A program made the position numbers and the translations under genes. Positions 3-63,820 of a DNA stretch of 64,000 nt are shown here, in pieces. How positions within the stretch are numbered: the first letter of the stretch is position 1; the number at the start of each line of letters is the position of its first letter. This DNA comes from Paraphysomonas bandaiensis (lineage: Eukaryota; Protista; Chrysophyceae), in contig CBFFRP010000201.1 of the NCBI GenBank assembly GCA_965644295.1, forward strand, positions 6,840-70,839, read 5' to 3'. The notes below the pieces were generated by a model, which saw nothing but the letters and a program-made list of their open reading frames with translations, made no database searches and had not been told where the DNA came from.

Positions 3-1445
3 AACCCCACCGATACCACGCTTTGTCTTGGAAGCATCCAGGTGAATGACAAACGGTTTAGAATTATCAATGTAACGAAGCACAGGAGCCTTCCGCAGCG
101 CCTCTTTAAGCCTCTCCATGGCATGGCCGTGTATCTCTGGGCGCCAGAGTTTCTTCACGTTGACATTTTTCTTCGTCAAGTCATACAGAGGCAACGCAAC
201 GTCTGCGTATTGAGGAATATACTGACGATAGAATGAAGTACTTCCTAAAAAACATCGAACAGCCGTAACGTCCTCTGGGTCTGCAAGATTTGTAATCGCC
301 TCAACCTTCTTCGGATCAGGGCATCGGCCGTTTCTGGACAGAATATGTCCAAGGAACCGCAGCTCCCGATAATTAATATGAGTCTTTTCAATTTTAAATG
401 TAAGATGACGATTTCGAAGTCTATCGTATATGGACTGCTGTGTCAGGAAATGTGCACGAAAACCCCCAGTATGGTTAAGCACATCGTCCAGGTATGCAGA
501 GACTTGAAACCGATCCATGTCTTCAAAAGTCTGGGCAATGACTCTACTAAAGTGTGAAGGTGCATTGACCCAGCCTTGTAACATCACCGTATACTGTAAA
601 TGAGCGTTATGAGTGCGGAATGCCGTTTTAAATCGACTATCAGCGTCAAGCTCCACACAGAAAAATGCATCAGCAATATCGCCCGCTGAAAACCGGTCAG
701 TTCCCACAGGAATGCTATCTAGCAAGTCATCAATCCTGGGAAGTGGAAAAATATCTACCTTAGTTTTCTGATTGAGCGATCGGACATCTGAACACATCCG
801 AAAAAATGTGGCCACTTCAGGCCAGTTAACCTTTTTGAAGATTTCTAAATGTGCCGTGTCTCCCCATTTATCTAAAAATTTCTGAATACGGTCATGATAA
901 GGAACCAGAACTAAACCATGGCTCCAATCACTGTTTGAGGGTTGAAGCTTTTTCTGACGAAGCATCATACCAGTTTTAGCCTCTAAAAATGCTTGTTGCA
1001 ATAAAGAATATTTCCGAGGTCGCGCCCGAACCGGAACTTCATCAGTAGTTTCAATACTCACTTTATAATCCTTAATCCGTGGAGGGTTATCGGGATCAGG
1101 AAAACAGAAAACATCAATATTGGCCAAAGCTTGAGCCAAAAAATAATCACGTTCATTATGATGTGAAGCTATAGTATCCGCGTCGATAGAAATCTCCCCT
1201 TGCAACGAGACTGCTTCATCATCCTTATATATATCCAGCTTAGTTAAAATCAGTTCAATACACTCTTGAAGACGGTCAGGAGTGTACTTGTCAAATCGTG
1301 GTTGAACTGAATTTCGCTGACACAAATCCACTAAATTCCATAATTCCACAGGGAATGACTCCGGTCGTGGACAATCCGAAGTCGTATCGGCTATGTTAAC
1401 AGGCGGTGGCTCCGGAGGTGGCCGATTCACCTCTTTGCCGTCAAC
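3..1445 (-). CDS. Reverse transcriptase and start of RNase H (pol), in frame with the upstream ORF after a single TGA; absent from the ORF track because it has no stop inside the window
   Basis: Hand translation: VDGKEVNRPPPEP...PVRARPRKYS...SDWSHGLVLVP...FRMCSDVRSLN...FPLPRIDDLL...GDIADAFF...MLQGWVNAP...AYLDDVL...FLGHILS...FVIHLDASKTKRGIGGV; 481 codons, no stop seen. Confidence 0.92.
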
Positions 1446-1448
1446 TCA
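1386..1448 (-). promoter_or_regulatory. Candidate stop-codon readthrough signal: UGA + 12-nt spacer + H-type pseudoknot
   Basis: UGA GUUGACGGCAAA [GAGGUG] A (AUCGGC) [CACCUC] 23 nt (GCCGAU): two perfect 6-bp Watson-Crick stems. Confidence 0.6.
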
Positions 1449-4400
1449 TTTCGATGAGGACACCAGCCTAGTGACATTTTCGTGATTCTCTTCAGATAAC
1501 ATAGAAATATCTGAATGCTGGAATTTGTCATCAGTAGGCATGATAGTGGTATCCTCCGTCTCGACACTGCCTTTCATAGCAGATTCCACCGTCTCCTGAT
1601 TATGAACCTGCATCCCCAATAATATGGGTTGAAGTCGTACAACTAAACGCGGTCTACCCGGTAGATGGATCCAATCATCGGTATGATTAGAAGCCCATAT
1701 ATAAGGTCTGTTCGCCGTACAAATAGCATCTTCAAATTGTAAGACGGGCTCATTAGCATCATCACCTGAATTAATCCTTGCAACCTCTGGCTGAGTCTGT
1801 ATCCATCCACCTAACGGAGCACCCTTGCCCACTTGAACAGGAATCCGCATCTTAGAATGCGGTGGGATATGTTTCGATATGCAGACTGCAGCCTTGTGAG
1901 GTTGAGGTTTGTTTTCACGGAGATGGCGTGCAACACATTTCTGTACCACAGGGTCCTGAGCTGATGCCATTTGCGTAACAGTCTCATTCCAGTTGAATTG
2001 AGGCATTGCATACTGAATACCATTAGTTTGGAACAACAGCAGTTTATGATCAAACAAGTCAATCATTTTGATACGTCGTAATGCATGCCCTCCAAAGATT
2101 ACATTCATGGAACAATTCGGGATAATTGGTATCCATGCTTTCAACTGAACTTGTTCTTTTGCATTGTTCAAAAGTGGTGCCTCTCCCGGCAACACTGCCA
2201 CAGGTAAGACCCGTTGTGCAGTAACAGTGTAGGTAAGACAAGCTCTCCAACTCACAGCGATATCCTGTGAACCTATTCCCCGAATAATGTACCGGTCTCT
2301 CTTTGGGATTCGTACTCGCTTAAGATTCAAGAGGGCTGCACACTCTTCGTCGATCAAGGACTCCATAGAGCCATGATCCACCTGGTGCCAACCGACTCTC
2401 TGTACTGGTTTACCAGTTTCATCAACTGTATCATATAGAACACGAAACATGGATAATGTATCTTGAGATTCATCCCTAGGTGTCACAGTGTGCACTAAGT
2501 ATCGAACTTTTTGTGCAGCATGAACCTTTCGTTTGGGTTTTGATTTTGACTTAGTAGATCGTGAACCGGAAAGTGAGTCTGTACTGTGAGCAGGTATAGA
2601 GTCATCCAGTGTAGAGAAAGAAGAGTCATCATCACTATCCGCCCAATGTACTTGTGGTGTACTAGAAACACTTGATGCTATGGAATTGGATTTCTTCCGT
2701 TCGCCACCAATGAATGTCGTATGCAAAGCACTCCCTCCATCCCACCGGCTAGTCAAATCCCGAAATGCTGCCTGAAATTCCTCCTTCTGAGCCGTAGGCA
2801 ACTGAGACCAAGGTTGGCTATACTTATTCAATCTGGACAACCAAAAATTGTATATTCGATTCCTTTCAATGTTACGTGGTGTCTCAGACACAAATCCAAG
2901 TGGGTCAAATTTCCCATTCGTGATGCGTCGGCATTGAGCGTTGTTAATACTATGTCGAAGGCCACATCGTGAACATGTAAGCTTCGCAATCTCAATCGGT
3001 GTGAGAGATGGTTTGGGTTCCTCGCGTATGCCGGCATGAACTTTGTGATGTCGTCGTAAGCCTCCCTCACCCTTAGTTGTGTCTGGTTGTTTACTAGATT
3101 GGACATCAGGACGTATAATGTATAGCAGCGTTCCCTGCTGGAATTCTTCCTGAATCTCTCGCCAGATTGATTCTACCTCCTCCCATGATAGACTCCAATT
3201 TTCAGTCGACTTCGCCCTTTCAATTTTTGTGATCTTATTGTCGTACGCTGCAACCAACGATTTACCCCAAACAGGCTCTTTTCCTACCACTCGGCGCATA
3301 GATTCTTCCATCACCTGTGCCGTCTGGCGATCCGGCGTATTATGTTCAACTACCTCTTTTAGTTCATAATATAGTTGCATAACTGCTGTAGGCGTAGCGA
3401 GATCAGGAGCAGCCCAGTCCTCAATCTGTTTGGCACGCTGTTCATTGGTCTGTACGGGACAATAATTACGGATAGCCCAATGGCAGAAATGCACCCAACG
3501 ACGCATCCAAAATTCATATTCAGTGGCTAATTGGCTATCCTCCTGGTCATCCCATATCTCTGGCACACGATTCAAAGACAACCGTTGCAGTTCCTCTTTA
3601 AAGCCGCCCTTAAAACACCAACCATTCTTTGTCTGTATGACCAAATCTTTCAGCCCCATCTTGGCCTGACGTGCCTTCTGGACAGCAAAACGGAGTCCTC
3701 TTTCAATGGGGTATCGATTAGAATGATCTTTCTCTAGACGCATCTTGTCATCAGTCTTCATGTAGAGAGTAGGCTCCTTGACTTCTCTTCTCCATGGAGT
3801 AGCTTTGGGCAATGCTTTAGACATTAACCGCATGGCTCTAGACGATCGCATTTGGTTACAGAGCAGTGACCAGTGTTGCTCTCCAATTTGTTGAAGGTGA
3901 CACCCGAATGCTTGTGCGTCTAGCAGTCTGCCATCTTCAGTTGGATAAATACGGGAATTCGATCTTGAACCCCTAGAACTCAACACTCGGGATGTACTTG
4001 ATCTGGTATCCGCTGACCGACTTCCTCTGCTGACAAAGGAACCCCGACTACCATTGCTGACGAAGGAGTGGTATGACTCATCGTCAGAGTCAACGGTCCT
4101 CTCTTCCCAAGATCCAAATTTTTTATTTTGCTGACTGAGTTGTTTGCTGAGGAGGTTGCAGCGCATCATTAGTTGGCTATCGGCCTCCTCCCACATAGTT
4201 TCAGCCATGTCTCTTATATCAAGGTATTGGTTCAGCACCATACACAATTCCGCTGTTTCGTAAATGTGCTCTTCAGCCACTAACTCATGTACATTGTCAA
4301 GAACTGTCAGCCTACTTAACCACTCGCGAACATTTGATGGTAATTGCAAGCCGTTTCCTCGATTTAAGACTAGTTGGGCAAGCTGAGAAATATCTTCCGC

Positions 4401-5516
4401 AGAACTCTCTCTTGCTATTTTCATTTGCTCAAAAAAGTGGTCCTGTAAACGATCAGTGACCTCAGTAGCTGTACAAGCCATGTAAATCTGCTGCTCCCAA
4501 TGCTGCAGTGGCTCTGCTATATGAGCGGTGTATCGCTGTCTTGACCATCTGGTGGTATGTACCCTCCGTCGATCTGCGTACTGTTGCAGGATGTTAAGAG
4601 AAATCTTTAGGTCCATAGGGTCTCTAGCCCCACGATCCAGGTACAAATGCTCCATATATGTGTCCTCGTTTAGGTCTGGCCGAGGACGCAATCTTCTATG
4701 GCCCAATATTATGCACTTCTCTAATGTGTCTGTGGTGGGTCTCTTTGATCTGAGTATCCCCCTTCTTACTCGGCATCGATAACATAGACCACCCTGAATT
4801 TCCATTGAATTTACCTGGTCCTTACAATCGATACATTGATTTTCCGAGCAATAATAACATATTCCTCCTGCGGTGAGACGCTTGGGATCTGTGAGTCGCT
4901 GACAGATTTGACACCTATCCGCATCTCTACCTAGTTGGTCTGGTCTGCTGGTGTTATATACACCTTGCAATCCAGAGGTGGAATGTAGCACATTGTGTGC
5001 CTCATCCCCTGCGTGAGGTAAGGGTGTATAATGACACTCCTTTGCCTCAGCCTCCTTGTTACTTTGTTCCTTGAATGGCAAGGGGTCCATATGCAATGGA
5101 CTATCTCCTGTCGCATCTGCATCAAACGAACAAAAATCATCCTGAGCCCTCAATGGTTGAATAGCGTCCTTACCGAATGCGAGAGGTTTTCGGGCTGACA
5201 AGGGTACCTCCTCCGGACTACTAAGACGATCCACCAGTTCTGGAACAGTCGTTGCTTGACTGTCTGCTTCATGAGTTTCTGTCTCTCTAAAGTCGTCACT
5301 TTGTTTATTGAGAGATGAAATTTCCTTAAAAAATTGAGACACCAACGTCTCTGATTCGATCTCAGACAACCCAAATGCCAAGCCTATATCCCGGATTTGA
5401 TCCTCACTGGCATTGGCAATGGAAGGGTCTAACCCTCCAAGCATAAGCCTGAGGGTCCTTCTCACTGACTCGAATTTAGTAGACTCTTGTGCGCTATCAA
5501 GAGTCTCCTCCTCCAT
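1446..5516 (-). CDS. Gag-protease polyprotein (1356 aa) of the Gypsy-like element
   Basis: Long intronless ORF; N-terminal 4x CxxC cluster, knuckle CSRCGLRHSINNAQC, protease-like QVDHGSMESLID...VIFGGHAL. Confidence 0.85.
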   Translation of the reverse strand: MEEETLDSAQESTKFESVRRTLRLMLGGLDPSIANASEDQIRDIGLAFGLSEIESETLVSQFFKEISSLNKQSDDFRETETHEADSQATTVPELVDRLSSPEEVPLSARKPLAFGKDAIQPLRAQDDFCSFDADATGDSPLHMDPLPFKEQSNKEAEAKECHYTPLPHAGDEAHNVLHSTSGLQGVYNTSRPDQLGRDADRCQICQRLTDPKRLTAGGICYYCSENQCIDCKDQVNSMEIQGGLCYRCRVRRGILRSKRPTTDTLEKCIILGHRRLRPRPDLNEDTYMEHLYLDRGARDPMDLKISLNILQQYADRRRVHTTRWSRQRYTAHIAEPLQHWEQQIYMACTATEVTDRLQDHFFEQMKIARESSAEDISQLAQLVLNRGNGLQLPSNVREWLSRLTVLDNVHELVAEEHIYETAELCMVLNQYLDIRDMAETMWEEADSQLMMRCNLLSKQLSQQNKKFGSWEERTVDSDDESYHSFVSNGSRGSFVSRGSRSADTRSSTSRVLSSRGSRSNSRIYPTEDGRLLDAQAFGCHLQQIGEQHWSLLCNQMRSSRAMRLMSKALPKATPWRREVKEPTLYMKTDDKMRLEKDHSNRYPIERGLRFAVQKARQAKMGLKDLVIQTKNGWCFKGGFKEELQRLSLNRVPEIWDDQEDSQLATEYEFWMRRWVHFCHWAIRNYCPVQTNEQRAKQIEDWAAPDLATPTAVMQLYYELKEVVEHNTPDRQTAQVMEESMRRVVGKEPVWGKSLVAAYDNKITKIERAKSTENWSLSWEEVESIWREIQEEFQQGTLLYIIRPDVQSSKQPDTTKGEGGLRRHHKVHAGIREEPKPSLTPIEIAKLTCSRCGLRHSINNAQCRRITNGKFDPLGFVSETPRNIERNRIYNFWLSRLNKYSQPWSQLPTAQKEEFQAAFRDLTSRWDGGSALHTTFIGGERKKSNSIASSVSSTPQVHWADSDDDSSFSTLDDSIPAHSTDSLSGSRSTKSKSKPKRKVHAAQKVRYLVHTVTPRDESQDTLSMFRVLYDTVDETGKPVQRVGWHQVDHGSMESLIDEECAALLNLKRVRIPKRDRYIIRGIGSQDIAVSWRACLTYTVTAQRVLPVAVLPGEAPLLNNAKEQVQLKAWIPIIPNCSMNVIFGGHALRRIKMIDLFDHKLLLFQTNGIQYAMPQFNWNETVTQMASAQDPVVQKCVARHLRENKPQPHKAAVCISKHIPPHSKMRIPVQVGKGAPLGGWIQTQPEVARINSGDDANEPVLQFEDAICTANRPYIWASNHTDDWIHLPGRPRLVVRLQPILLGMQVHNQETVESAMKGSVETEDTTIMPTDDKFQHSDISMLSEENHENVTRLVSSSK

Positions 5517-7366
5517 AATAATAACAATATAATCAAATCACAATGAACAAATATATGTCTACAACTACAATGCTATCTACCAGCAATTTCAAGAGTAAGG
5601 AAATTGCATCTTATTATCAATAATATAAATATGTCTACCTACGATTCCGTGATCAATGGAATGAACATCATTCATATTCAATACCAAACACATCAGTCTA
5701 ACACAGTTGATCATAATAACTCATCACAACTGTATAAGGGAAGATACATTCAGTATTCTCTTTGTAGTTGAAGCCTGGTATTCGTACTCCTTAGTACAAT
5801 CAATCCCCAATAAGCACTGAAGGAAATACGTAATGTATAACTGTATTACTGGATAATCTGGCAATACACATCTATCAGCGTGGATATCAAACCCGGAATT
5901 CTCCAGTAAACTTCTCCAGCCTTAAAGTCAATATATATATATAATAAGAACATATATATATATCATCCATCATCAGTATCATCATTATGTCTCATTATTG
6001 ATAATCATGTCTCTCTTTGTCTTTTGAATGATTATGTAAATATCAATAATAAGCATGAATTGTCATAGTCATAATACATCATATATCTCAGTGTGAGTTA
6101 TGGTAATAATAATAATATTCAATCTATGTTTGCACAGATAGTATGTACAAACTTAAGCATATACAATAGAGAGCTTGTAGAATAGAATAACCTGATAGCT
6201 GGTTATTACACTAGTACTCTAAGTGTTCCAACTCTTCGTCACTGTCGTCTTCATTCTTATAATCGGACAGTCCATCATCGATGACCTGTGAGCCCACTGA
6301 AGTATACTGTCAAAGTAAGAAGAACAAACTGTTTCGTCGTCTGTTCACATGCATATTGTACGTAATAAATATGAAAGAGATGATGGCCGAATAGTTTGGA
6401 CCGTATACTGTACAGTGATAGTTTAGTGTAATAGTTTGGGTAGATATGGCGATCATTCTACTGGCATCTTACTTTTATTCACTGTTTAGACTGGCTTGCT
6501 CTTACAGATTACAAGAAAAACATGTTTGTATGAGAATGACAGATGACAGCATCAATTTAAGCAGTTTGGAGTTTACTATTTGGTGAGTAGCTTGGCAGAG
6601 ACAGACAGTACGATTTGAAATATTGAACATGAATTGTGTTCTTCGTTGCAGGTATGTATCATAATTGTTCGATGTTTAAATAGTATACCAAATTGCAATA
6701 TATTTCCATCGCCCCATGATAGTAGATAGAAGATGAGTTAGGTGATTATGAAGAGTAGTTTATGATTAATCAAGTATATATTATAAGACACACTAGCATG
6801 AGCAATACATATCAATTATCAATATATTGCGAGGCCAGTTTTTTCTAAAATAATAATCAATATATTGTAGCAAGCAGGAATAAATAATTACAATATTTAT
6901 ATTGCAATCCAATATATTTCTGACTGCCCCTGATAATTGATGTTGCTTTGAAATTGGAAGTGTGTAAATGATTATTCTGTGATGAAATAAACCTAAATAA
7001 TATTCCTCTTTATGCATTTATTAGATAATGATTTGGATGCAATTTCTACCGAGATTTTAACTTTTCAATTTCGAGGAGTTCAACTATAATCAACACTCTA
7101 ACCCTATTATTTTCAACCAATCTTAATGTATGAAGCAATCCGGACACAATCAAAACGCCTATTTTTTTAGTCGCCACCACATAGCAGATACTAAACTTTC
7201 TAATCTCAAATTTTTGTATGGTCGCCGTTGTGGTCATTTTCAACTTTCCTTGTGTGAATATTCACAGAGGTTGCAATACCACAATATCCCCAGGCACCCG
7301 ATACAAAACTTCTGCAGCACGAGGAACATCCTATCGATAGGAGATACGCAAGCATAGACACAAACG

Positions 7367-8635
7367 TCACTCCGTACATCCTGTAGCACATGCTGTACCT
7401 AGAGAACTTTCAAGTGAAAAGCAAGCCATGGTACAGGAAAGGTCAGCCTCAACAATACTGGATGACACCGACGTGCGCACATAAATGCCAGCACGAGGAA
7501 CCTGGATGCGACGAAGAGAGACCGGGGTTTCGATCAGAGTACTTAAGGCAGGCTCATCAGCGAACATAGTCAAAACAAAGCGCTTTGGTCTAAAGCAGTG
7601 TAGCACATTTCTCACGAGGGGGGTGTAACTTGGGAGACTAGCGTTGGTCTCAAAGGATGCGTAGGAGCATTGGGGCTCCGGGGTGACGTGGATAGTGGAG
7701 TACGCGTCATGTAGTATAGCATTCATGGAGTACCCACAGGGTGTGAAAGCGCACGCATCAATCGTTGCACCAGGTACCAGCTGGTGAATTCCAGACATTA
7801 GCGTCATTTCTTTTCCTGTAATTGTGTCCCTACTTTTGTAAAAAATTGAAGCCACTGCTCTATCCATGTCAAACATCATCATGTTAATGGTGATACCTTC
7901 CATGGAAGCGGGCAGTGGGAAACTGGGATTTTGTGAGTTTATATCGGGTCTTCTTGAAGAAATGCCAGGTACGGACAGGGCCCCATGAGGACTAGGAAGA
8001 TGATTCGTAGCAGTGCCGTGTGGAAGGTCCGCCACATATACAAACCAGTGATCATCGGTGACAGGCCCAAGGATATGTCCAGATCCATTTAGACGGGCCT
8101 GCAGCTTCGAGTGAGAGTCCAGGAATTTTATCTCGTCACCGAAATTAGAATGTGGCCATTTCTGAGCACTGGGGTTATTAAGATTTTTCCGCGAGTATCC
8201 TACCCATCGAAGCTCCATGTTTAGGTCGTCGGCGTATTTCAACAGTGAATCTAAACAGTGAAGCAGTGTCGTGGTTCCACATGTCTTCATAATATAGCGA
8301 TGCTTGTACACAAAGAGCGATGACTCAGATAAAACGTAAGCATCCACATAGCTACTTGATATTTTACTTAGAATGCTACATTTAGCTTCCGTACATAGGA
8401 AATCAAGCTGCTGACGGGAAAGTGCGCGGAGGCCACGTTCGTGGCCGACGCCGGGTTGAAAGCACACCTCCATCGTCTTCTCCGGTCCCTCAAAGCACTC
8501 CTGGGAACTGTATTGGCCTTCAGAAGATACAATGATTTGACCCTCATCGTCCGAGCAAGACGTAGCACACTCAGGGATTGGACTATATGTGCGATCATAT
8601 ATCTCAATTACATCATTTCTGTTAGTTATACTCAT
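7367..8635 (-). CDS. AMD1: S-adenosylmethionine decarboxylase proenzyme (eukaryotic type), intronless CDS; ATG at 8635
   Basis: FEGPEK, self-cleavage motif YVLSESSLFV, MKTCGTT, FTPCGYSMN, STIHVTPE, YASFETN. Confidence 0.96.
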   Translation of the reverse strand: MSITNRNDVIEIYDRTYSPIPECATSCSDDEGQIIVSSEGQYSSQECFEGPEKTMEVCFQPGVGHERGLRALSRQQLDFLCTEAKCSILSKISSSYVDAYVLSESSLFVYKHRYIMKTCGTTTLLHCLDSLLKYADDLNMELRWVGYSRKNLNNPSAQKWPHSNFGDEIKFLDSHSKLQARLNGSGHILGPVTDDHWFVYVADLPHGTATNHLPSPHGALSVPGISSRRPDINSQNPSFPLPASMEGITINMMMFDMDRAVASIFYKSRDTITGKEMTLMSGIHQLVPGATIDACAFTPCGYSMNAILHDAYSTIHVTPEPQCSYASFETNASLPSYTPLVRNVLHCFRPKRFVLTMFADEPALSTLIETPVSLRRIQVPRAGIYVRTSVSSSIVEADLSCTMACFSLESSLGTACATGCTE

Positions 8636-8946
8636 TCGAGGGGATGCAACTCGCGTCTCTGTTAGAAATACCAGTAAACCCAAGTCGTTAGCCCAGCCAG
8701 TTGACCTGCAAGGCAAGAGAATACCGTTAGACAATGTTAAATGCAAACTTTGATGTGTATCTCACCTATACACAACAATCAATGGCTATTGCAAGCACTT
8801 CTTTTCAATCGATCGCTAGTAACCTAAAGCACAATATGCATCATCCCAATACAAAACAATTCATAAGCAACATCACAACTCACCGACAGTAAAAGAACTT
8901 CAGTATTTCAATGCATTCGTTGATTTACTATTGCACTTTAAGACAT
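8636..8946 (-). promoter_or_regulatory. AdoMetDC 5' leader with two predicted 60-nt introns (8883-8824, 8765-8706) and two 2-codon uORFs (8946-8938 MS*, 8916-8908 MH*)
   Basis: Both introns start GTGAG and end in a pyrimidine-rich TAG/CAG, with length matching other introns in the window. Confidence 0.65.
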
Positions 8947-9528: not shown

Positions 9529-11314
9529 ATGTCTTATCTATATCGCATTAATCTTAAGAGAGTTATAAGTAGTCACATAGGGACTCTACGAGTAGCTAGT
9601 CGCAGTCGCTCTACTCGCCATAGATTCAATATCCCTCTAACCTCTGCTGCTATATCTCATGCTGTACTCTACTTCACATATAATCAACACACTGGTAATA
9701 GTGATGTAGCTCTATGTCAACCTCAGACTGTATCAGCCTCACCATCAGCAGTTAAGGCTCCTGTTAACTCAAGTGTATTGGAAGCTATAAAGAAATCAAT
9801 TGCTTGGATTGTGGATCTGATTCGACTGCTCATTAGATTAGGTTTACTTGCTTTTCATTTTAGTCCTGCTGCAGTTACTGCTCCGGCATTACTTATAAAC
9901 TCTGAGCGCTTTGAGCAGTTCTGGTGGGAACTTGTTCGATCAGGAATTTTTGCTAGTGGTCCATGCTTGACTAAATTTGCGCAATGGGCAGCGACACGAC
10001 CAGATATATTTCATCCTCGATTCTGCAAAGAGTTAGAGCATCTTCAGGCACATTCTTACCAGCACAGTTGGAGAGATACTGTTCGAACTCTGAATGCTGT
10101 TTACGGTGAAGACTGGCAAGATGCTCTGCATTTGGATCAACGTAGTGTTACGGGGTCAGGCTTGATTGCCCAGGTGTACAAAGGAAAATATGTAGACTCT
10201 GAGACTGGAGAACACAAAGAAGTTGCTGTGAAAGTTCTCCATCCAGGGGTGCGTAAAGCTATGGAAGCAGACCTGGTCGTGATGAGATTTCTCGCGGAGT
10301 CCATTGAGACCACAGCCGCATTGATGGCTTGGGTAGGCCGTCTTGGCAGCTCCAACGAGAAGGAAAATCGTTTAAGCATTTTGGAGACGACTCTTTCCTT
10401 GTCTGACAGTGTGGAAGAGTTCAGGGAGATGATGCTTTCACAGCTGGACCTTAGCAATGAAGGCGACGCCATGTTGAGGTTTAGGCGGAATTTCAGCCAA
10501 AGCAAGTGGAAGGACAGGGTCATTTTTGCTGAACCCATTGATTTGAAAAATAGTAAATACGCAAAGCGCCACCCAGATGTTCTTATTGAAAGCTATCAAC
10601 ATGGACAGCCGATGGCTGATTATTTAACACAACGCGCGGCTGAAGGAATGCGGACGAATCCTGGATGTGTTACGCCATCTACCAGTTGCGATAAAAGCAT
10701 TGCTGCTCTTGGTCTGGATATTATTCTTAAAATGGTATGTATGATATTTGCTGTTCCGATTAATGTGTTCTCACTCTTTACTTCAGATTTTTGAAGACAA
10801 CTTTATTCATGGTGACCTACACCCTGGCAATCTCTTACTAGCAACGTCTTGTGCTCCAAAGAAGTCACCAGGTCTTGTTGTGCTAGACACCGGTCTTTGT
10901 ACAGAACTGCGACCACAGGATCGACAAAATCTTATTTTGTTGTTCAAGGCAGTCCTTGATCGTGATGGTGCTCGAGTTGGCCGTCTAATGATAGAAAAGT
11001 CTCGTTACAAGGATGCCAAGCACAACGTCATTGATGCCGCAGGATTTGAGAAGAGTATGCAGCAGGTCATTGACGATGCTTTTTGTAATGGCTTGAAGCT
11101 CCGTGATCGGGGTGTGAGTGATCTTTTGTCACGAGTACTGAGATTGTGCTATAAACATCGAGTTAGGTTAGAGAGTGGATTTGCATCTGTTGTCCTCTCT
11201 ATAGGAGTCGTGGAAGGACTTGGAATGCAATTGGATCCTGAAGTAGATGTTATATCACGTGCAGCGCCGTTTATTCTTCGAGCAGCGGCGAATGACTGTT
11301 TAGCTAGTTCATAA
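9529..11314 (+). CDS. ADCK2: ABC1/UbiB atypical kinase, ADCK2/Cqd1-like; 2 exons (intron 10735-10786)
   Basis: GPCLTKFAQWAATRPDIF, GSGLIAQVY, VAVKVLHP, DNFIHGDLHPGN, LDTGL; N-terminus resembles a mitochondrial transit peptide. Confidence 0.85.
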
Positions 11315-20510: not shown

Positions 20511-23500
20511 ATGGAGATCGACTTATCTACACAACAAATATCAGAATCTGTTCATTACTCGTTAAGAAACATCGTCTCACTGGTATGTCACTCTATCCCC
20601 TTATATACCTCTATATACACTAATATTAACACAGGAGGAGGTTCTTAAACTATGGCATACACTTGGATTAGTTGTGAGAGAACAACTTATACAAAAGAAA
20701 GGCGTAAGACTTGAAAAACTTGGATATTTTGGTTTTGATGTGATGGGATGTCCGTGTTTTAATGTCGCTAATGAGTTTATGAGAACATATAAAGTACGAC
20801 ATGTTCCTACACCAACTAGTGATAATATTCCGATATCAAAATTAAATTTTACTCAATTGAGTCGAATGTGTGGGGTTGATAGATCACGTGCTGAAAAGAT
20901 ATATGCAAAGTATGTGGAGTTATTTGGTGCTGGTGTCCGAACAGGTCAGAATGCTCTGTTGTCCATTCATCGAGTGGCTGAAGTATTTGTTAACAACGAC
21001 TCTGTTAAATGTTCTTTTCTTCCTGAGTTTGTTGATATGATGTCAACTAAGTCGAAGGTGGCTAATCGAAAAAGACCCAGCTCTGCACCCCGCACACGGG
21101 TGAATCCTCGTGATACTATAAACGCCGCATCTTCACCTAGCGTGCCTGTGAGGTCTCACGGGGCAGTTGTGCGAGGGAAACGCAATGATGTCGTGAAAAA
21201 GAATGCGGTCAGAGGTAAGAAGCGGATTGAGGCACCTGGCAACTTCCACGGTCATAACCCCATAGTTGGTGATGATGATGATGATAACTTTGAAAACATC
21301 AGTAGACCGAATGTTAACAGAGGTAAGAAGGCGGTTGCAGGAGGTGCCAATCAGAGGCATCGCAACCCTATCCTTGAAGGTGACGACTACGTAAGTATTG
21401 CTAGTAGTGACCAGGGTTTTGGATATTCGCCGCGTCCGATGAGTGCAGGAAGCAGGTCTACAACGTCAAGGGCCAGCAGCGCCAGTACGCATAGTATAGA
21501 TACTAATAGTCTGCTGCACTCTCCTAGAGGCAGAATTCCTGATGGAAGGCGTGGTGTGTCGCGTGGAACGGGTGGGCTCAGGAAGGAGACACTAGCGAGA
21601 CACAACTCGTCTGCCCCTAGAGGAACAAGGAAAGAAGCAGCGCCCGCTGTCCGTCCGAGTACCCCAGCATCGTCAGTTGCGGTTGATGCCAGAGCCCTAG
21701 CAGCACGGGCTATGGGACCTGGAGACATTGTGGAGAAGATAAAGCAAAAAATAGTCGCTCGTGGAGGAGTGAATGGTATAAAAGGCTTCGCTCGTCTTCT
21801 AAAAATTATGGACGACAATGGAGACAAACGTTTAACGAAAGATGAACTGATGTACGGTATGCGTGACTATGGCATAAATTTAACAAAAACTGAAGTAGAA
21901 CAACTGTTCTTGCTCTTTGACCGAGATCGTAACGGGTTCATTGACATAGATGAATTCCTTATTGGAATTCGTGGTGACCTCAATGACCGGAGGAAGAAAC
22001 TCGTGCGAATGGCTTTCGATATTCTCGATACAGATGGGTCCGGATTAATCACAGTGGATGAATTAAGTGCAGTGTACGACGTGTCATGGAATCCTGCTGT
22101 ACAGGCAGGAAAAATGACGGAGGCGGAAGCCATGAAAGAGTTCATGCGTCAATGGGACAGACTTGATGGTGACGGTATGGTGTCTATAGAAGAATTTGAA
22201 GACTACTACAAGGGGGTGAGCTCATCGATTGATGATGACGATTATTTTGAATTGATGATACGGAATGCGTGGAGAATCCCCGGAGGCAAAGGAATGGCCG
22301 CCAACACGGCTAACAAGCGAGTCCTTGTCACGAACAAAGATGGTTCACAGTCTATTGCTACAGTCCATAATGAGCTGGGCATGAAACCTGGGGACAGGGA
22401 TGCCGTTCGGTCACGTTTGGCGCAGCAGGGCATAGACGCGGCAAATGTGGAGCTTCATGGTGGTATCGATACAACAGAGAAACCCAAGAAGGTAGAGTTA
22501 TTGCTGTGTTTTGTACATCTGTGTCACGGATTCTATTTATATTCAGAATCGTCGTGGAGACGTTCGGAGAGAAGCTTGGTCAGAACCTGGCGGTGGCGAT
22601 CATTCTGCCCCCCCAGAAAGACATTTTCGTGGTGATCAGCGTAGTAGTGGTCCTGGGAGAAGCGACCGTCGTGAAGGTGGTAATAGACTCGAGGCAAGTA
22701 GTTCTGCCCAGACTGGTACTACTGTGAACATTTCGGAAATTCTGCGCCAATGTCTGTACAATCCTCCGTTGTCGTTAGAGCAACTTGCCATGAAGCTCAA
22801 GATATCACTGGTGGGTGAGAATCCTCAGATATCGCGGGCTGTATTTTGTCAGAGGTAGTGTACCTTATTGGATACTTTTGTATATAATTATATTCAATGC
22901 AGAATTAGCCAAATTGCACCTGAAACGGACAAGCGTACATTGGCCCACATTTGGGAATCTGTTGCTGAGTCTTGTGCTGGTAAAAAGACAGCACCATCTA
23001 TTGGTATCAATGATCTTCATAAATATTTTTGCAATAAGTATGGCAAGGACAAGTCTAGTAAATCACATAGTGTGGTTGACAGAGCAATAGCAAAAATTAT
23101 TGAGCGATCAGGTGGTGGTTTCAAAGGATTACAAAGGTAAGAAGCAATTTGAAATCATACTTCCAATACATAATTACAGTCCATCTATAGGACATTATCA
23201 ATAATGGATGATAATGGCGATAAAAGATTAAATAAAGAGGAATTGAAGTAAGCTTTTGAATTATTACAGTCACTGAAATAATTTTGGGATGCAAGGAACG
23301 GGTTAAGCGATTACGGAATCAATTTAAATCACAGAGAGATCGATGACATTTTCCTAGTTTTTGACAGAGACCACAATGGCTTCATCGACGTGGATGAATT
23401 CCTTATTGGAATTCGTGGTGACCTCAATGACCGGAGGAAGAAACTCGTGCGAATGGCTTTCGATATTCTCGATACAGATGGGTCCGGATTAATCACAGTG

Positions 23501-24220
23501 GATGAATTAAGTGCAGTGTACGACGTGTCATGGAATCCTGCTGTACAGGCAGGAAAAATGACGGAGGCGGAAGCCATGAAAGAGTTCATGCGTCAATGGG
23601 ACAGACTTGATGGCGATGGTATGGTGTCTATAGAAGAATTTGAAGACTACTACAAGGGGGTGAGCTCATCGATTGATGGTGACGATTATTTTGAATTGAT
23701 GATACGGAATGCGTGGAGAATCCCCGGAGGCGAAGGAATGGCCGCCAACACGGCTAACAAGCGAGTCCTTGTCACGAACAAAGATGGTTCACAGTCTATT
23801 GCTACAGTCCATAATGAGCTGGGCATGAAACCTGGGGACAGGGATGCCGTTCGGTCACGTTTGGCTCAGCAGGGCATAGACGCGGCAAATGTGGAGCTTC
23901 ATGGTGGTATCGATACAACAGAGAAACCCAAGAAGGTAGAGTTATTGCTGTGTTTGTACATCTGTGTTATTGATTCTTCTTAATAGACACGCCAGGATTC
24001 TTCTAATCAGCAGAACATTGCTCCTAAACACGTACGCCATCGTGCTGCTGAGAAGCTTGGAGCCGCCTTCCGTGGCCATAAAGGGAGGAAAGAAGTTAGT
24101 AAAGTGCGTAGTAATGTTGAAGCTGCGATGCGACGTGAACAGGATCGTGAAGAGGAAATACGTAAAGAAAAGGCGAGGCATATTTATCGGCCTAAGGGCA
24201 AGTCATACATTGGGTTTTAG
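20511..24220 (+). CDS. Multi-exon fusion protein: N-terminal CCDC81-type HU domains, low-complexity linker, two calcyphosin-like EF-hand modules, C-terminal IQ-like motif
   Basis: ATG 20511, intron 20583-20634; W..LG..VREQL..KKGV.LEKLGYF, KLNFTQLS; MDDNGDKRL, FDRDRNGFID, AFDILDTDGSG, DGMVSIEEFEDYY, DDYFELMIRNAW (x2); AAEKLGAAFRGHKGRK. Confidence 0.85.
21949..22524 (+). repeat. Copy 1 of a ~576 bp near-identical intragenic direct repeat
   Basis: Matches 23393-23967; 5 substitutions and 1 indel counted by eye. Confidence 0.95.
23393..23967 (+). repeat. Copy 2 of the ~576 bp intragenic direct repeat
   Basis: Matches 21949-22524, including the first ~30 nt of the following intron. Confidence 0.95.
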
Positions 24221-57006: not shown

Positions 57007-57157
57007 ACTTTATATATTATTAATAACTTAATTACTTTATATATTATTAATAACTTTTAATTACTTTATATATTATTTATATTCTTAAATAAAATTAATT
57101 ACTTTATATATTATTTATATTCTTAAATAAAATTAATTACTTTATATATTATTTATA
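57007..57157 (+). repeat. AT-rich direct-repeat array, 5x ACTTTATATATTATT (spacing 27, 29, 38, 38)
   Basis: Copies start at 57007, 57034, 57063, 57101, 57139. Confidence 0.9.
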
Positions 57158-57161
57158 ATGT

Positions 57162-57344
57162 TTATAATAAAAAGTAATATAGATAGTAAAGTAGATTTAA
57201 TAAGTAGATTTAATAGTAGATATAGGGGGAGGGAAAAATTAAAATGAAAAATAATTTAATTTGTAAGGTTTGTAAAAACCCCGGGATTCTACCATAAAAA
57301 CTACTTATTAAATCTACTTTGTTATCTATATGACTTTTTTATAA
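57162..57344. repeat. Imperfect inverted repeat with ~45 bp arms (57162-57207 / 57301-57344)
   Basis: ttataataaaaagtaatatagatagtaaagtagatttaataagtag vs reverse complement of ctacttattaaatctactttgttatctatatgacttttttataa. Confidence 0.85.
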
Positions 57345-57604
57345 TAATGTATAATGGCAATGCTTAAAGCTCTGGAATGTAGTTGTAGTGATATAATGGC
57401 GAAGCTTTAAGCAAAAACTCATAAAACCTTGAATTCTAATTTAAATATAGAATATAATAATGTAATGCTATATTATATATAGATGTCAATTTATACAAAG
57501 CCCAAAACAAGCAATAATGCCATTTTCAATGCAGAAAATCATAAACAGATTGAAAATATATATAAAATGGTTTAAAAAGAAATTATTATATATATATTAT
57601 TACT

Positions 57605-58126
57605 ATGATTGAAGAATGGAAAGTGATTGATGGATACAACAATAACTATAGTGTATCAAATAAAGGAAATGTAAAGAATAACAATACGGAAAGAATATTA
57701 AAGCAAACTATAAATAGAGATGGTTACCATAGACTCAGTCTTTATGTTGATAGAAAGCAAAAAACAGTTGAGATTCATCGATTAGTTGCAATAGCGTTTA
57801 TACCAAATCCAGAAAATAAGCCTTGTGTAGATCATATAAATAATAACACATTAGACAACAATGTTAATAATTTGAGATGGGCAACCGCAAAAGAGAATCA
57901 ATATAACCAAAAATTAAGCAAAGCAAACAAATGTGGAGTAAAAGGCGTATGTTATAACAAAAGAGATAAGAAATGGCGAGCGTCAATAAAATTAGACGGC
58001 ATTAAAATCCACATTGGAAACTTCTCCACAATAGAAGAAGCAAAACAAGCAAGAATAAAAAGAGCGAATAAAGCATTCGGAGTCTTCATAAATGCCTGTG
58101 AAAAAGAAGAAGAACCCCTTACATAA
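57605..58126 (+). CDS. NUMOD4-HNH-AP2 homing-endonuclease-like protein (173 aa), intronless, AT-rich
   Basis: EEWKVIDGY..YSVSNKGNV (NUMOD4); IHRLVAIAFIPNPENKPCVDHINNNTLDNNVNNLRWATAKEN (HNH); GVKGVCYNKRDKKWRASI..DG.KIHIGNFSTIEEA..AR (AP2). Confidence 0.93.
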   Translation: MIEEWKVIDGYNNNYSVSNKGNVKNNNTERILKQTINRDGYHRLSLYVDRKQKTVEIHRLVAIAFIPNPENKPCVDHINNNTLDNNVNNLRWATAKENQYNQKLSKANKCGVKGVCYNKRDKKWRASIKLDGIKIHIGNFSTIEEAKQARIKRANKAFGVFINACEKEEEPLT

Positions 58127-58405
58127 CAATAACAATGAATATAACGAATACGATACATACAACCAAACAAAGACAACATACCTGAAATGCACTCATAATG
58201 ACATCATCATATTTCCTTTATTATATCACAATGATATATACACAATGACAATGAATATATATATATGCATATCACTGAGTGGGTGGTTTGTACACTATAG
58301 TAGTAAATGAATGGTGTTGAACACATCGAACACAACTTAGGTTCTTTATCATGTAATGTTTATAATTTCATCTTATCAGTTGAGAATAGTAAACCTTAGC
58401 AAATA

Positions 58406-61400
58406 ATGTCAACTTCTGTTATGGTAGCGAATGCTAGTTGTAGGGATGGGGAAGATGACAAGAAGCTACGGTTTGACAAGAACCAAGCAGACTATTCAGC
58501 GAGAAAAATCAAGATGCATCTAATGAAGAAAAACCGAAACCATCTTGGCTTGGAGGACCCGCCAGCCGGAGGAAGAAATTTAGAGTCATGGAGAGAGCGT
58601 AATGATACCTGTGTTAGTACTATTTGGGAGGCTTGCGAGCATGACCCTGATGTGTTGGAGGTAGCCAATCAATATTTGGAGGAAGGCAATTTTACCTGCT
58701 GATGATCCTGCTAAGGAGGTGTTATCCAGTGAGCTCCTTCAGACACTGGTTGATAGGTTCAGAGGCGAGATTGGGACTGTATTGGAGAAGACTACGGCAG
58801 AATACCATTCGTTCAAAATAAGGCCGGGGGAAAAAGGTGTCTGTTGGGGTAGATCGACTGAACGGTATAATCCAGAAGCTCATAAAATTGGGACAACCGC
58901 AGACAGAGGCAAGTAAATTAGCAAAGATAAAAGCAGCGCTGCAGATAGAGGAATTACATGATTTATGGATGTCGGTAGCGATGATGCCTAAAGCAACAAC
59001 TACATTTGATTCGGTGAAAGAGGCTTGTGAAGAGTATGGCAGGCTATGACGCAGCTGAAGAAACTAAAGGGAGACAAATCTGAAGAGATCAATTTTACGG
59101 CGTCGAAGGAGCCAGTGGTTTGTTCATTTTGTCGGAAGAAGGGACATGTAGCAGCGAATTGTTATGCTAAGGAACGACAAAGAAAAATGGATAAGTTCAA
59201 AAGAAAAGGGAAGACAAAGGAAAAGGCTTCGAAGAGTGTGCAGCAGCCAGGATCAAAGGATTATACTGGTTGTCATATCTGTGGAGATTTTAGTCATAAA
59301 GCCCGACAGTGCAAGTCGAAAAAACGGAAGAACATAAAAAACCCGGATAATGAGAATCCTCGAAAATCGAACAGGAAATTCGAGACAGAATGGAAGAAAT
59401 ACGTCAACGACGGAGAGTCGTCGGATGATGAAGGAGATATGTTTGGAGAAGAGGTTTTGCTATCGGTGGATACGTCGGAAGAACCTCGTGTATATCTGGA
59501 CAGTTGTGCAAGTAAAAGACTGTTTATAGTAAAGGATAAAATTGCACTGGAGTCATTTACTCCTGAGTTTGGGGCAATCCAACTAACTAGAAGGGGTTCT
59601 CAATTGGAGACACAGGGGGCTGGTACATTCGGGGAATGGAGAGACATCAGAGTTAGTGAAGAAGCGGTGAAGAACATTGTGTCAGGAGGGATGCTGAGAT
59701 CAATGGGATACGGATTACAACTGCTTCGAAAGCCTAAAATCGTGGAATTGGACTCTGGAAACGAGGTGTTGACTGGAGAGTACGATGAGCATGGAGGGAT
59801 GCCGTATGTGGACTTGATGGAGGTGTTAAATCTGCCAAATGTGTCTATGTGCAATCAGATGGAGGAGGTAAATTTGTCGGATAATACAGGACAAGATGCG
59901 TTGGATCGCTTACATGAGCGTACTGGACATGTCTCGAAATCGAAGTTAATAGAAGCTCACCGACACATGTTATTCAGAGGATCAGGACTACAACGACATC
60001 ACCTTTCGAAGGCAAAAGGAGAAGAGTTGCAAGAAACCCCTGTGTAAATGGTGTGCCAAGGTGAAGATAACCAGGCATTCGTTCAAATCACGGGACAACG
60101 AAGAGCTAAGCGCAGTCAGGTTCCTGGAAAGAGTAACAGCGGACATCTCCGTCTATCTCAATTGTGAATCCAGACAAGGGTATAAGTACGTGCTCCTATT
60201 TACGGACTTAGCAACAAAGATGATATGGGAATATGGATTGAGGACTCGAAGCGGAGAGGAGGTGTTCAAATGTCTACGACACTTGTGCGAGGTCCACTTA
60301 GTGAAGTACGAGGGGTGGAACCGTATAGTGGAGTATCATGCCGATGGAGGATCCGAACTTATTAGTCAGCAAATAAGAGAGTATCTGTTGCAGCGATATG
60401 GGACTCGTGTGCCACATACAACACGAGACACGCCAGAGCTCAACGCGGTGTCTGAGAGGAAATTCCGAACAATTGGGGAGATGACACTGACGATGTTGAC
60501 GGCATCTGGACTTCCAAAGTCGTACTGGTTTGATGCTTATCAAACTGCATGTTACATTGTGCGACGAATGCCAACTCGGACGTGGCAAGGATGGATGTCT
60601 CCATATGAGTGTGTCCCAGGGGGAGCGTTCCCAGCCTATCGTGGCTACGGAAATGGGGGTGCAAAGCATATGTGCTAACACCCAAGGCCGACAGGAGGAA
60701 GGACTGGGAGGACAAAGCAATGACAGGTTATTTCATAGGGTATCCAGCTGATCGAGAAAGGATACAAGGTGCTAGTGGGGGACACCGTAGTACACTCTGT
60801 ACATGTATTATTTGATGAATCGGTACCTGAGAGGTCTCAGGATTATTATAGAGAGCTGGAGGAGGCTCAAGTGGCTATAGATCCCGAGGCTCGTCAACCG
60901 GGTGAGTTTGAGTATCTTATCGGAAAGCACCATGAGGATGGTGGTCTGCTATACAAGACTAACAGAGTGGTGATAAGGAAGGGACTTATTGTGGGATACC
61001 GGTCGTTGGTTACTGGTAACCAGGTTCAAGTGGAGGATAAAACTCCTATTCATATTGCTGACATCAAGAAGATGACAGAGGATCTTGCGCAGAGGGTGGT
61101 TAGGGCCAGAGTTACTGACAACCGTGACGGCGGTATCAGCGGAGTGGTGCCACAGCAGTCGGAAAGTGGGCAGGTGCAGCCCCAGGCTGACTCAGCATTA
61201 CCTTCGGGGGAAGGGACCCCTGCCGAGAATCATCCGCACGGCAAACGCGCAAGAACTCCAAGGACGGTAACGAATGTGTCGGTGTTAGGACAAATCCATC
61301 ATTTGAGTGATGAGAGTGATGTGAGTGACCTCTTACAGGAGGCAGACTCAGTGTGGATGTCAGCGGAAGAGTCGACAGTGCCTCAGACACATCGTGAGTC

Positions 61401-63010
61401 CTTGGAGAGTGCCGAGCACAGTGGAGTGGAGACGAGCTCGCCGTGTAGAGCGAGAGGGTTTGGCGAAGCGAGATACCATGGAGGTGACTCGTATACCGGA
61501 CGGAGTCGTCCCACTGCACTCCAAGTACGTCTATGGAAAGAAGTACGATAAGGAGGAGAGGTCCGCCGATATAAGGCTCGTCTTGTAGCAATCGGTTGTG
61601 GACAGCAGTCGAGTGGTTGGGCGAACCATTTCGCACCCGTTGTTAAGGGGGTAACAGTGCGACTGTTAATCGCCATAGCTTTCGTGATGAACATGGTAAT
61701 TCATCAACTGGATGTGTCTAACGCATTTCTATATGCAGATATAGAGGGGGATGTATATATGAAGGCAACTCCGGACTTTCAGCTGCCTGAGGGGTACTGC
61801 TTTAAGTTGAAGAAGTCGTTATACGGGCTTCGGAGTTCCCCGCGGTCGTGGTGGAAAACATTGGATAAATTCATACGATCTATGCATTTTAAACCATGTG
61901 TATTAGACCCGTGTTTGTATTATGTAGTATAAGGGCGATGAATTGATATTATTAACGATATATGTGGATGATATCCTAGTGTTAGGTCGTGATGTCAACA
62001 TAGTGAAGGATATTAAAGCTCAACTGTGTGCCCGGTTTGATATGAAGGATATGGGCGAGATGGAACATTTTCTGAATGTTCGAGTCACAAGAACGCCAGA
62101 GTATATTCGTCTTGACCAATCAGTATATGCGGCTAAGATCTTAGAAAAGTTTGAAAAGTATCTTGGGTCACCGCGAAAGGTACGGAAGAGTCCTCTACCG
62201 GCGGAAGCAATGGATTTAGTGGCAAAAGGGGCGCGGCATGAGCATACCGAGGAGGAACAGCTTATAGTAGATAACTTTCCATATCGGCCGCTGATAGGTG
62301 CATTACTATATCTATCGATGAACACGAGGCCGGATATTGCCTATGCAGTGGGAGTACTGTCTCGGTTCAGTAATAAGGTGAATATTGAAGTATGCAAGCT
62401 ATTAACACACGTATGGCAATATATTCGTGGTTCTATTGACAAAGGGATTCAATATGGGAGTAGACGGTTCGACTTCCATATGTTTACTGACGCGGATTGG
62501 GCGGGAGACCAGATCTCCAGGAAGTCCACGTCGGGGTACGTTGGGTTTGCAGCGGGAGGGCCTATAGTCTGGCAGTCCAAACTGCAGACGACAGTGGCAA
62601 CGTCAAGCATGCAGTCTGAGTATCAATGTATTTACTCGGGTCTCCAAGAAGTGCTATGGGTTCGGGGGGTGACGGGTGAGATTAAGTTGAGGCTCATCAA
62701 ACCCACACCATTCTTCATCGACAGTCAGAGTGCCCAGGATTTGGCCGAAAACCCAGTATTTCACAAGAAGTCGAAGCACATTGAGATTAAGTATCACATG
62801 GTGAGAGAGCACGTGGATCCCAATCAGTTCAATACGATTAAGTTAGTGCATGTGCATACATCGCAACAAGCAGCAGATATTTATACAAAGTCATTGGTTG
62901 GTTTATCCATATGGAGCAGAGAAAGAGAAATCTTGGAGAGAAAATTAAGAGTTCCACTGAAGTGATTAATGAGGGACCAAGGGATAAAAGAAGACGCAAG
63001 TAGGTACTGA
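58406..63010 (+). pseudogene. Copia gag-pol polyprotein broken by roughly ten frameshifts (real decay or consensus errors)
   Basis: CSFCRKKGHVAANC and CHICGDFSHKARQC knuckles; YLDSCAS protease; LHERTGH; HADGGSE, PELNAVSERKFRT; QLDVSNAFL, LKKSLYGL, YVDD; FTDADWAGD, KHIEIKYH, ADIYTK spread over successive frames. Confidence 0.88.
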
Positions 63011-63806
63011 GTTTTGTAGACAGAGGTTTAGACTTAGAGATGAGTCTATTTTACTGTCAAGAATTTTTTTATCTCAGGCATTCAATAGCTGGGAGGCGTC
63101 ATAGTACAACACTCAATTGAGGGAGTGTTGAGATCTGAAGATTCTATATACTTGCAATTGAGTGCAGTATTATGTGAGATGCAAGGATCGAAAGATATGT
63201 ATGTAATTAGTACATTATATTGTGTAGTATGAAACTGAAGTAGAAGTGGGTGACTATACAGGATACGATCACTGAGTGTGTGGTTTGTACACTATAGTAG
63301 TAAATGAATGGTGTTGAACACATCGAACACAACTTAGGTTCTTTATCATGTAATGTTTATAATTTCATCTTATCAGTTGAGAATAGTAAACCTTAGCAAA
63401 TAAGGTACTGAGTTTTTTAGACAGAGGTTTAGACTTAGAGATGAGTCTATTTTACTGTCAAGAATTTTTTTATCTCAGGCATTCAATAGCTGGGAGGCGT
63501 CATAAGTACAACACTCAATTGAGGGGGAGTGTTGAGATCTGAAGATTCTATATACTTGCAATTGAGTGCAGTATTATGTGAGATGCAAGGATCGAAAGAT
63601 ATATATGTAATTAGTACATTATATTATGTAGTATGAAACTGAAGTAGAAGTGGATGACTATACAGGATACGATCACTGAGTGGGTGGTTTGTACACTATA
63701 GTAGTAAATGAATGGTGTTGAACACATCGAACACAACTTAGGTTCTTTATCATGTAATGTTTATAATTTCATCTTATCAGTTGAGAATAGTAAACCTTAG
63801 CAAATA
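63002..63806 (+). repeat. Two tandem ~400 bp units (63002-63402, 63403-63806), each 3'UTR + PPT + LTR + 5' leader
   Basis: aggtactgagtttt...ccttagcaaata repeated with few differences. Confidence 0.95.
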
Positions 63807-63820
63807 ATGTCAACTTCTGT

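Follow-up and report, generated by a model that had tools for sequence, protein, structure and literature searches.

Introduction

The position of the break in a retroelement sets the ratio of capsid, protease and polymerase. In plant Retand elements, the prevailing layout consists of GAG-PROT, a single stop codon and RT-RH-INT (351 elements, 49%), and the same layout accounts for 14% of Ogre elements (PMC6317226). Ogre elements remove a spacer of some 274 bp, located between GAG-PROT and RT, by partial splicing (PMC6317226). A literature search found neither a mechanism nor a knot for the Retand stop codon.

In the gammaretrovirus MuLV, a UAG codon placed before most of the protease is followed by an 8-nt purine-rich spacer and an H-type pseudoknot, with readthrough of approximately 5% (PMC8310308, PMC3159437); spacers of 7-12 nt are described there for readthrough structures (PMC3159437). 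The Candida albicans element Tca2 has a UGA codon with a predicted 3' pseudoknot, and its Pol is made from full-length RNA; the Tca2 junction gave 0.3% readthrough in budding yeast, along with weak promoter activity (PMC2194720). The in-frame stop codon of the fission-yeast element Tj1 is needed for transposition (PMC4600332), while Tosmo1-3 and Tcry1 have a TGA-CT context in common, the permissive +4 base being C (10.1101/2022.12.06.519325).

Here we report the analysis of a 64,000-nt stretch of DNA from Paraphysomonas bandaiensis (GCA_965644295.1, contig CBFFRP010000201.1, positions 6,840-70,839 of the forward strand), hereafter the window, which carries an LTR retrotransposon with a single in-frame TGA between protease and reverse transcriptase (RT). 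The feature is real, conserved and expressed. With moderate confidence, we interpret it as a probable programmed readthrough of UGA helped by a pseudoknot, in a conserved expression break of a transcribed Ty3/Gypsy family. The initial annotation regarded the stop after the protease as an unusual recoding strategy for a protist Gypsy lineage; among Ty3/Gypsy elements, a single stop after the protease is not unusual, the same layout being the prevailing one in plant Retand (PMC6317226). What is new is the knot at the protease/RT position, together with a stop that appears to have moved within a Gypsy clade bearing a SET domain; a literature search covering few subscription papers found none that described Gypsy elements with SET or a knot following a stop between protease and RT.

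Like Retand, the window's element belongs to Ty3/Gypsy and has a single stop codon between GAG-PROT and RT. Retand elements differ in that tRNA primer sites are present and 98% have an additional archaeal-type RNase H (PMC6317226), whereas the window's element has a SET domain between RNase H and integrase and resides in a marine protist. A Pfam scan of the related proteins P0125 and P0134 detected RT_RNaseH, SET and integrase domains and no second (archaeal-type) RNase H. Since it has SET instead of an extra RNase H, we do not file the element as Tat. The stop-after-protease layout was probably reached independently of plants.

With MuLV, the junction shares an in-frame stop codon, a short spacer and a compact H-type pseudoknot, and a minority Pol fusion, shown in MuLV, is proposed here. 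The MuLV-like geometry suggested in the initial annotation thus stands as regards an in-frame stop with a predicted H-type knot nearby on its 3' side; it departs from MuLV in the stop codon (UGA), the spacer (12 nt) and the location after the protease, and the knot, which has no Rfam match, is a prediction from the sequence. The junction may therefore be seen as working like a gammaretrovirus-type signal without being a member of that class. Tca2 shares UGA and a predicted knot with the window's element, its stop being located between gag and pol, and the Tca2 result is a caution for the junction described here. Tj1, Tosmo1-3 and Tcry1 are likewise Ty3/Gypsy elements with one in-frame TGA, but their stop precedes the protease, the context is TGA-CT and no knot is mentioned in the passages covered.

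Results and discussion

Element structure and the in-frame stop codon

The following features of the element were located in the window:

5834..6210, minus strand: 5' LTR of 377 bp, TG...CA, from the sequence ends, with numerous loose ends of contigs at 6210/6211 and a single one at 5835
1449..5516, minus strand: ORF1, 1356 aa, starting at ATG 5516, with a Gag-like region, zinc knuckle, aspartic protease, beta-rich domain and 58-aa tail
2931..2975, minus strand: CCHC-type zinc knuckle, aa 848-862, from a pattern match, with a comparable Cys/His stretch in P0147
2001..2453, minus strand: retropepsin-type protease domain, approximately aa 1022-1172, with Asp 1047 in D-H-G-S, from the structure model and Foldseek
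1623..1892, minus strand: beta-rich domain downstream of the protease, approximately aa 1209-1298, all-strand in the model
1446..1448, minus strand: single in-frame TGA in the context AAA-TGA-GT(T/A), from the sequence and unchanged across the run contigs
3..1445, minus strand: ORF2, in the frame of ORF1, with RT and the start of RNase H (Pfam RVT_1, RT_RNaseH_2), running past the window edge
1392..1400, minus strand: V-N-I, putative protease cleavage site before RT, aa 1373-1375, 16 residues past the stop, from V[HN] at domain borders

The PR-RT-RH-IN order and the Gypsy-type RT identify the element as a Ty3/Gypsy LTR retrotransposon, the RH-SET-IN part being taken from the sister copy P0125 (1494 aa), which has an unbroken RT-RNase H-SET-integrase frame. 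The window covers the 5' LTR, and the 3' end of the element lies beyond it. No TGG-type tRNA primer site was found directly after the 5' LTR (window 5833-5800, minus strand).

A Pfam scan of ORF1 found neither Gag nor protease. The Gag likeness of ORF1 is based on atlas features (0.90-0.91 to Retrotrans_gag and zf-CCHC clusters) together with the zinc knuckle; the single-sequence structure model of the Gag region had a pLDDT of 39.9 and was unusable. A structure model of aa 1013-1299 built from a 20-sequence alignment (pLDDT 84.7) matched Ddi1 retroviral-like proteases best in Foldseek (E 1e-5), followed by retroviral proteases. It is this fold match that places the stop after the protease, as the initial annotation had it. 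The beta-rich domain at aa 1209-1298 may be dUTPase-like; no dUTPase was present among the listed Foldseek matches of the same model.

ORF1 ends at the TGA (1448-1446), and translation together with the Pfam RVT_1 and RT_RNaseH_2 matches bore out that the frame stays open for 481 more codons, up to the window edge. The two other frames of the minus strand are closed across the junction, which rejects a frameshift, and inspection agreed with the earlier observation that a slippery heptamer is absent, none being present 5-9 nt upstream of stem 1 of the pseudoknot described below. A stop-start arrangement (AUGA) was also rejected: the overlapping AUG is out of frame, and in the window's allele its reading frame ends 2 codons later. 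The first in-frame Met after the stop is aa 1517, 161 codons downstream and within RT sequence conserved across the clade, and the 160 codons after the stop contain no in-frame AUG. With the other frames closed and no early in-frame AUG, RT must be reached by in-frame passage of the stop or by a non-AUG start. The stop reads UGA-GU(U/A), and thus lacks the CARYYA context, as previously noted, and likewise C at +4; G at +4 is a poor context, so that help for readthrough seems needed. In the fold predicted for 1350-1470, the stop codon can itself be buried in a small hairpin that has a CGAA loop (window 1459-1446, minus strand).

V-H and V-N pairs are enriched in the element (14 versus 7.6 expected) and lie at domain borders; they presumably resemble Ty3 cleavage sites. 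Proteins P0134 and P0003 have V[NQ] at residue 10, a place comparable to that of V-N-I in the window. Such a V-N site just after the stop would suit a fusion protein that is cut to release RT.

Conservation of the stop codon among copies

The stretch, or part of it, is present in 20 of the 24 listed runs, and the junction was examined in eight of them, one of which may be the source of the window. In seven of the eight, the main contig across the junction has the window's letters at the stop and throughout the 48 bases of the knot; the listed differences cover all non-window letters of these contigs (X1, 3; X3, 7; X8, 1; X14, 9; X9, 7; X11, 22; X12, 1). The eighth run, X6, is fragmented and has no change at the stop among the rows listed. 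Three database ORF1 proteins reach the C-terminus, P0254 (92% identical), P0256 and P0137, and all end at the same residue as the window. The sister copies proposed as a check on the TGA thus agree with it, and a private nonsense mutation or a read error is excluded, the stop being common to the runs and the database ORF1 copies.

Near-identical copies differ elsewhere by approximately 1 in 100-200 nt, and the identity of the knot among them therefore says little. Of 40 differences inside the ORFs, taken from the best-supported rows among 534 and 53, 29 are synonymous, and so are all 4 that lie beyond the stop. Element pieces have depths of 299-377 in X6, compared with 27-35 for host genes, and 14.3 in X12, compared with 2.3-6.4; as contig depth is a rough guide, this suggests several to about ten copies, and the family is probably multi-copy. 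A more diverged family in the same runs aligns over parts of RT. Protein P0254 differs from the window at 6 of 15 residues in 1304-1318 and at none of the last 38 before the stop, a pattern that may reflect either constraint or recombination near the junction.

The stop could also be an old nonsense mutation in a non-autonomous family that borrows RT from another element, and several database copies do have Pol frames broken further on (1046-, 769- and 868-aa forms, P0001 cluster). We consider this very unlikely, since the listed differences after the stop are all synonymous, an unbroken 1494-aa Pol exists, the ORF1 end is the same in the 92% relative and similar in four other lineages, and no member of the 12-member RT cluster or the 7-member ORF1 cluster crosses the stop.

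Predicted pseudoknot downstream of the stop codon

Three RNA features were defined downstream of the UGA:

1434..1445, minus strand: 12-nt spacer; position 1443 is polymorphic (synonymous, Val), from the sequence and run contigs
1386..1433, minus strand: predicted H-type pseudoknot, with stem 1 at 1433-1428/1420-1415, loop at 1427, stem 2 at 1426-1421/1391-1386 and a 23-nt loop at 1414-1392
1395..1445, minus strand: doubtful alternative third helix, 1445-1437 with 1404-1395, partly in the ViennaRNA fold

Both perfect 6-bp stems, the 1-nt loop and the 23-nt loop are present exactly as claimed in the initial annotation. Among 5000 dinucleotide shuffles of the approximately 100 nt that follow the stop, 4 contained a 6+6 Watson-Crick H-type knot; among 5000 synonymous recodings of this stretch, 20 did. 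Under a looser definition (at least 11 pairs, start within 20 nt), knots were found in 15 of 3000 shuffles and at 3 of 271 steps along the element. The 6+6 test was positive at two further sites in the element, 4092 and 2174; knots of this type are thus uncommon, not unique. ViennaRNA, which is unable to form knots, placed stem 1 in the minimum-energy fold of each of the three stretches examined (z from -1.2 to -2.0). Searched up to an E of 5, Rfam had no match to the junction. Among back-translated N-termini of related proteins, those of P0134, P0003 and P0004 are compatible with the knot and that of P0005 is not; with a null of 22/367 and loop sizes picked post hoc, this compatibility is a hint only.

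The window's allele contains the third helix, previously put forward as a possible switch that sequesters the spacer. In five of the eight runs, and at about half the depth of X6 (157/304), a synonymous change at 1443 breaks one pair of this helix while leaving the knot intact, and the switch is not supported.

Among the points that speak against the favoured knot-aided readthrough are the +4 base, which is G and not the permissive C, and the 12-nt spacer, compared with 8 nt in MuLV. At 63 nt, the junction makes a compact candidate, from a protist, for UGA readthrough driven by RNA structure in the poor context of a +4 G.

Transcripts, splicing and the genetic code

Runs X9 and X11 are RNA runs: between them, the host introns 8703-8764, 8821-8882 and 10733-10786 are skipped, and an intergenic bin is uncovered. 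The check for splicing across the stop proposed in the initial annotation was answered by contigs of X9 (700-1710) and X11 (700-4041), which bridge the stop unspliced and unchanged. Ogre-type splicing was accordingly seen in neither of the two RNA runs examined, rare forms being invisible in contigs. Ogre has the same break position and the protease at the Gag level; here the break is one codon, and the contigs are unspliced.

A minor spliced RNA that removes the stop, or RNA editing that alters it, is highly improbable. Six in-frame GT..AG pairs, 33-117 nt in length, enclose the stop, plant Ogre is described as partially spliced at this point (PMC6317226), and contigs drop rare variants, which leaves room for a minor spliced or edited RNA. 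However, both RNA runs cross the stop unspliced and unchanged while host introns are spliced, and the candidate pairs are unlike the host introns, which are 52-60 nt, AT-rich and have pyrimidine-rich ends. A lone in-frame stop without a spacer ORF break also differs from the Ogre intron layout.

Some protists reassign UGA, and a sense reading (Trp, Cys or Sec) in the host would remove the stop altogether. The probability of this is next to negligible: the 1838 codons of the element contain one TGA and 34 TGG, nine host frames of 236-944 codons contain 54 TGG and no TGA (a partly circular count, the frames being defined as open), and the host SAM decarboxylase frame ends at a TGA beyond its Pfam match.

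Separate production of RT is unlikely. Ribosomes could reinitiate or initiate internally at a GUG that lies within stem 1, six codons past the stop, or a short RNA could begin near the junction. The called starts of P0126 (the window's ORF2) and of P0002 and P0134 are at Val and that of P0003 is at Met, all at nearly the same offset, but such calls are V or M by construction. The RT-side contig of X9 has a depth of 349 versus 174 upstream, a difference in contig depth that cannot rank the parts, and in X11 the depth is flat on one contig from 700 to 4041. The weak junction promoter of Tca2 (PMC2194720) is a precedent for a short RNA. Against separate production, the region past the stop is devoid of in-frame AUG codons over those 160 codons and the AUG overlapping the stop is out of frame; a free Pol would need a route into the particle, and the putative cleavage site right after the stop suits a fusion better. 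All explanations other than knot-aided readthrough, unaided readthrough and a separate start are, taken together, quite unlikely.

Stop codon position in the SET-bearing clade

An RT search among longer proteins gave 153 matches, approximately 40 of which form a clade at 38-58% identity, most with a SET domain; in P0125, P0134 and their relatives, this domain lies between RNase H and integrase. In a midpoint-rooted tree of 101 rows, built by a quick method with no rows dropped, the window grouped with P0002-P0006, P0134, P0136 and P0138 (98) in a 9-row clade, the sister of which is a 35-row group (100). The protease region and RT are in one frame in 18 proteins of the sister group. None of its 14 proteins with a complete protease N-terminus has a zinc knuckle upstream, so that Gag appears to be a separate frame there. 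Many members of the sister group have an endonuclease/phosphatase domain (PF03372) between protease and RT.

RT proteins of the window's group start 21-33 aa before the conserved RT N-terminal motif, except for P0006 and P0136, which start after it. ORF1-like proteins from four other lineages (24-32% identical) end 13-22 aa past the beta domain; for two of the four, the end falls on one and the same residue in a pair of assemblies. These nearest lineages are known from called proteins only, with ORF1 and RT not linked to the same elements, and the break could be a frameshift there. P0147 has a knuckle-like stretch joined to the protease, like the window. P0138, from the window's own 9-row clade, runs from the beta domain into RT without a break; P0047, P0199 and P0237 appear to be single Gag-Pol frames; and P0146 ends 40 aa past the beta domain on a short contig and is uninformative.

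A locus scan with a broad alignment gave 147 loci (10 of 64 parts in the case of metagenomes), nearly all of them generic Gypsy, and scans with RT alone or with a near alignment gave no matches. Searches for ORF1 homologs found none, or the sister copy only. All three distant members with gag junction DNA (L014, L022 and L119) have an in-frame TGA after the zinc-knuckle region, while L006 begins inside Pol and L007 is interrupted upstream. In L014, TGA-CAA is followed by a 2360-codon frame from protease to integrase; in L022, a broken copy, TGA-CTA lies upstream of the protease. The UGA-C(UA)/CARYYA context is thus found in L022 and partly in L014, and both are nearer to the fission-yeast layout than the window's element. 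In L119 (2848-2900, gapped contig), the TGA is followed by an 8-nt purine spacer and a 5+6 Watson-Crick knot seen in 1 of 3000 shuffles; L119 is on a long branch, its place in the tree is unsure, and it is counted in the clade through a match of the RT N-terminal region. Rfam gave one match on L119, by chance. The L119 knot is closer to the MuLV geometry than the window's own, and its contig lies within a bacterial genome bin.

Readthrough by basal UGA leak or by a distant signal, with the local knot incidental, is rather unlikely. Two more 6+6 knots occur within the element, no such knot follows the stops of L014 and L022, the junction matches no Rfam family, and Tca2 offers a precedent. These points are opposed by the nulls at the exact place (4/5000 and 20/5000) and by L119, which shows that the clade can use a knot. 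We retain knot-aided readthrough as the preferred explanation for the window's junction.

The clade appears to hold three layouts, i.e., one frame, a stop before the protease and a stop after the protease, which allows asking what changes when the protease is made at the Gag level. On the simplest reading, the clade would use stop readthrough, and the window's lineage would have shifted the stop past the protease; the direction of this move, from before to after, we infer from the midpoint-rooted tree.

A single in-frame TAG with G as the next base was seen in seven other Gypsy loci. It separates an ORF1 of 450-650 codons from Pol and is 360-610 codons upstream of the RT motif; a strict knot after the TAG was found in none of the seven:

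L013:1852, L020:3723, L021:3286, L048:1802, L065:4430, L084:2272, L141:2186: TAG-G loci

Proposed expression mechanism

In the favoured model of knot-aided readthrough, most ribosomes would likely stop at the UGA and release Gag-protease, while a minority would likely insert a residue and read on to produce a Gag-PR-RT-RNase H-SET-integrase fusion. The predicted knot 12 nt downstream probably helps by slowing termination, and the protease would then free RT at the V-N site just past the stop. A stop after the protease would set the protease at the Gag level and ration only RT, SET and integrase.

Regarding its evolution, we tentatively propose, at somewhat less than even confidence, a shift of the stop in a SET Gypsy clade of marine protists: from the Gag/protease border, i.e., from before the protease as in the sister group and distant relatives, to the protease/RT border, where it would have gained its own pseudoknot and converged on Retand. 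If true, UGA readthrough driven by a pseudoknot would here be shown for the first time between protease and RT, and one clade would offer a natural comparison of three ways to ration retroelement enzymes. The junction also suggests a mechanism to test in plant Retand, where hundreds of elements carry a stop at this position.

Other features of the window

A 619-bp duplication (97%) lies at 21916-22534 and 23360-23977 (plus strand), within an EF-hand and CCDC81-like gene. One-base indels relative to the window occur in host genes at 7618, 7840, 9503 and 10424 in run X6 only, and are possibly run errors or strain differences. A broken Copia-type element (rve, RVT_2) occupies 59000-63810 (plus strand). 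Direct repeats of 405 bp adjoin each other there, at 63002-63406 and 63403-63810, and related pieces lie at 57042-58422.
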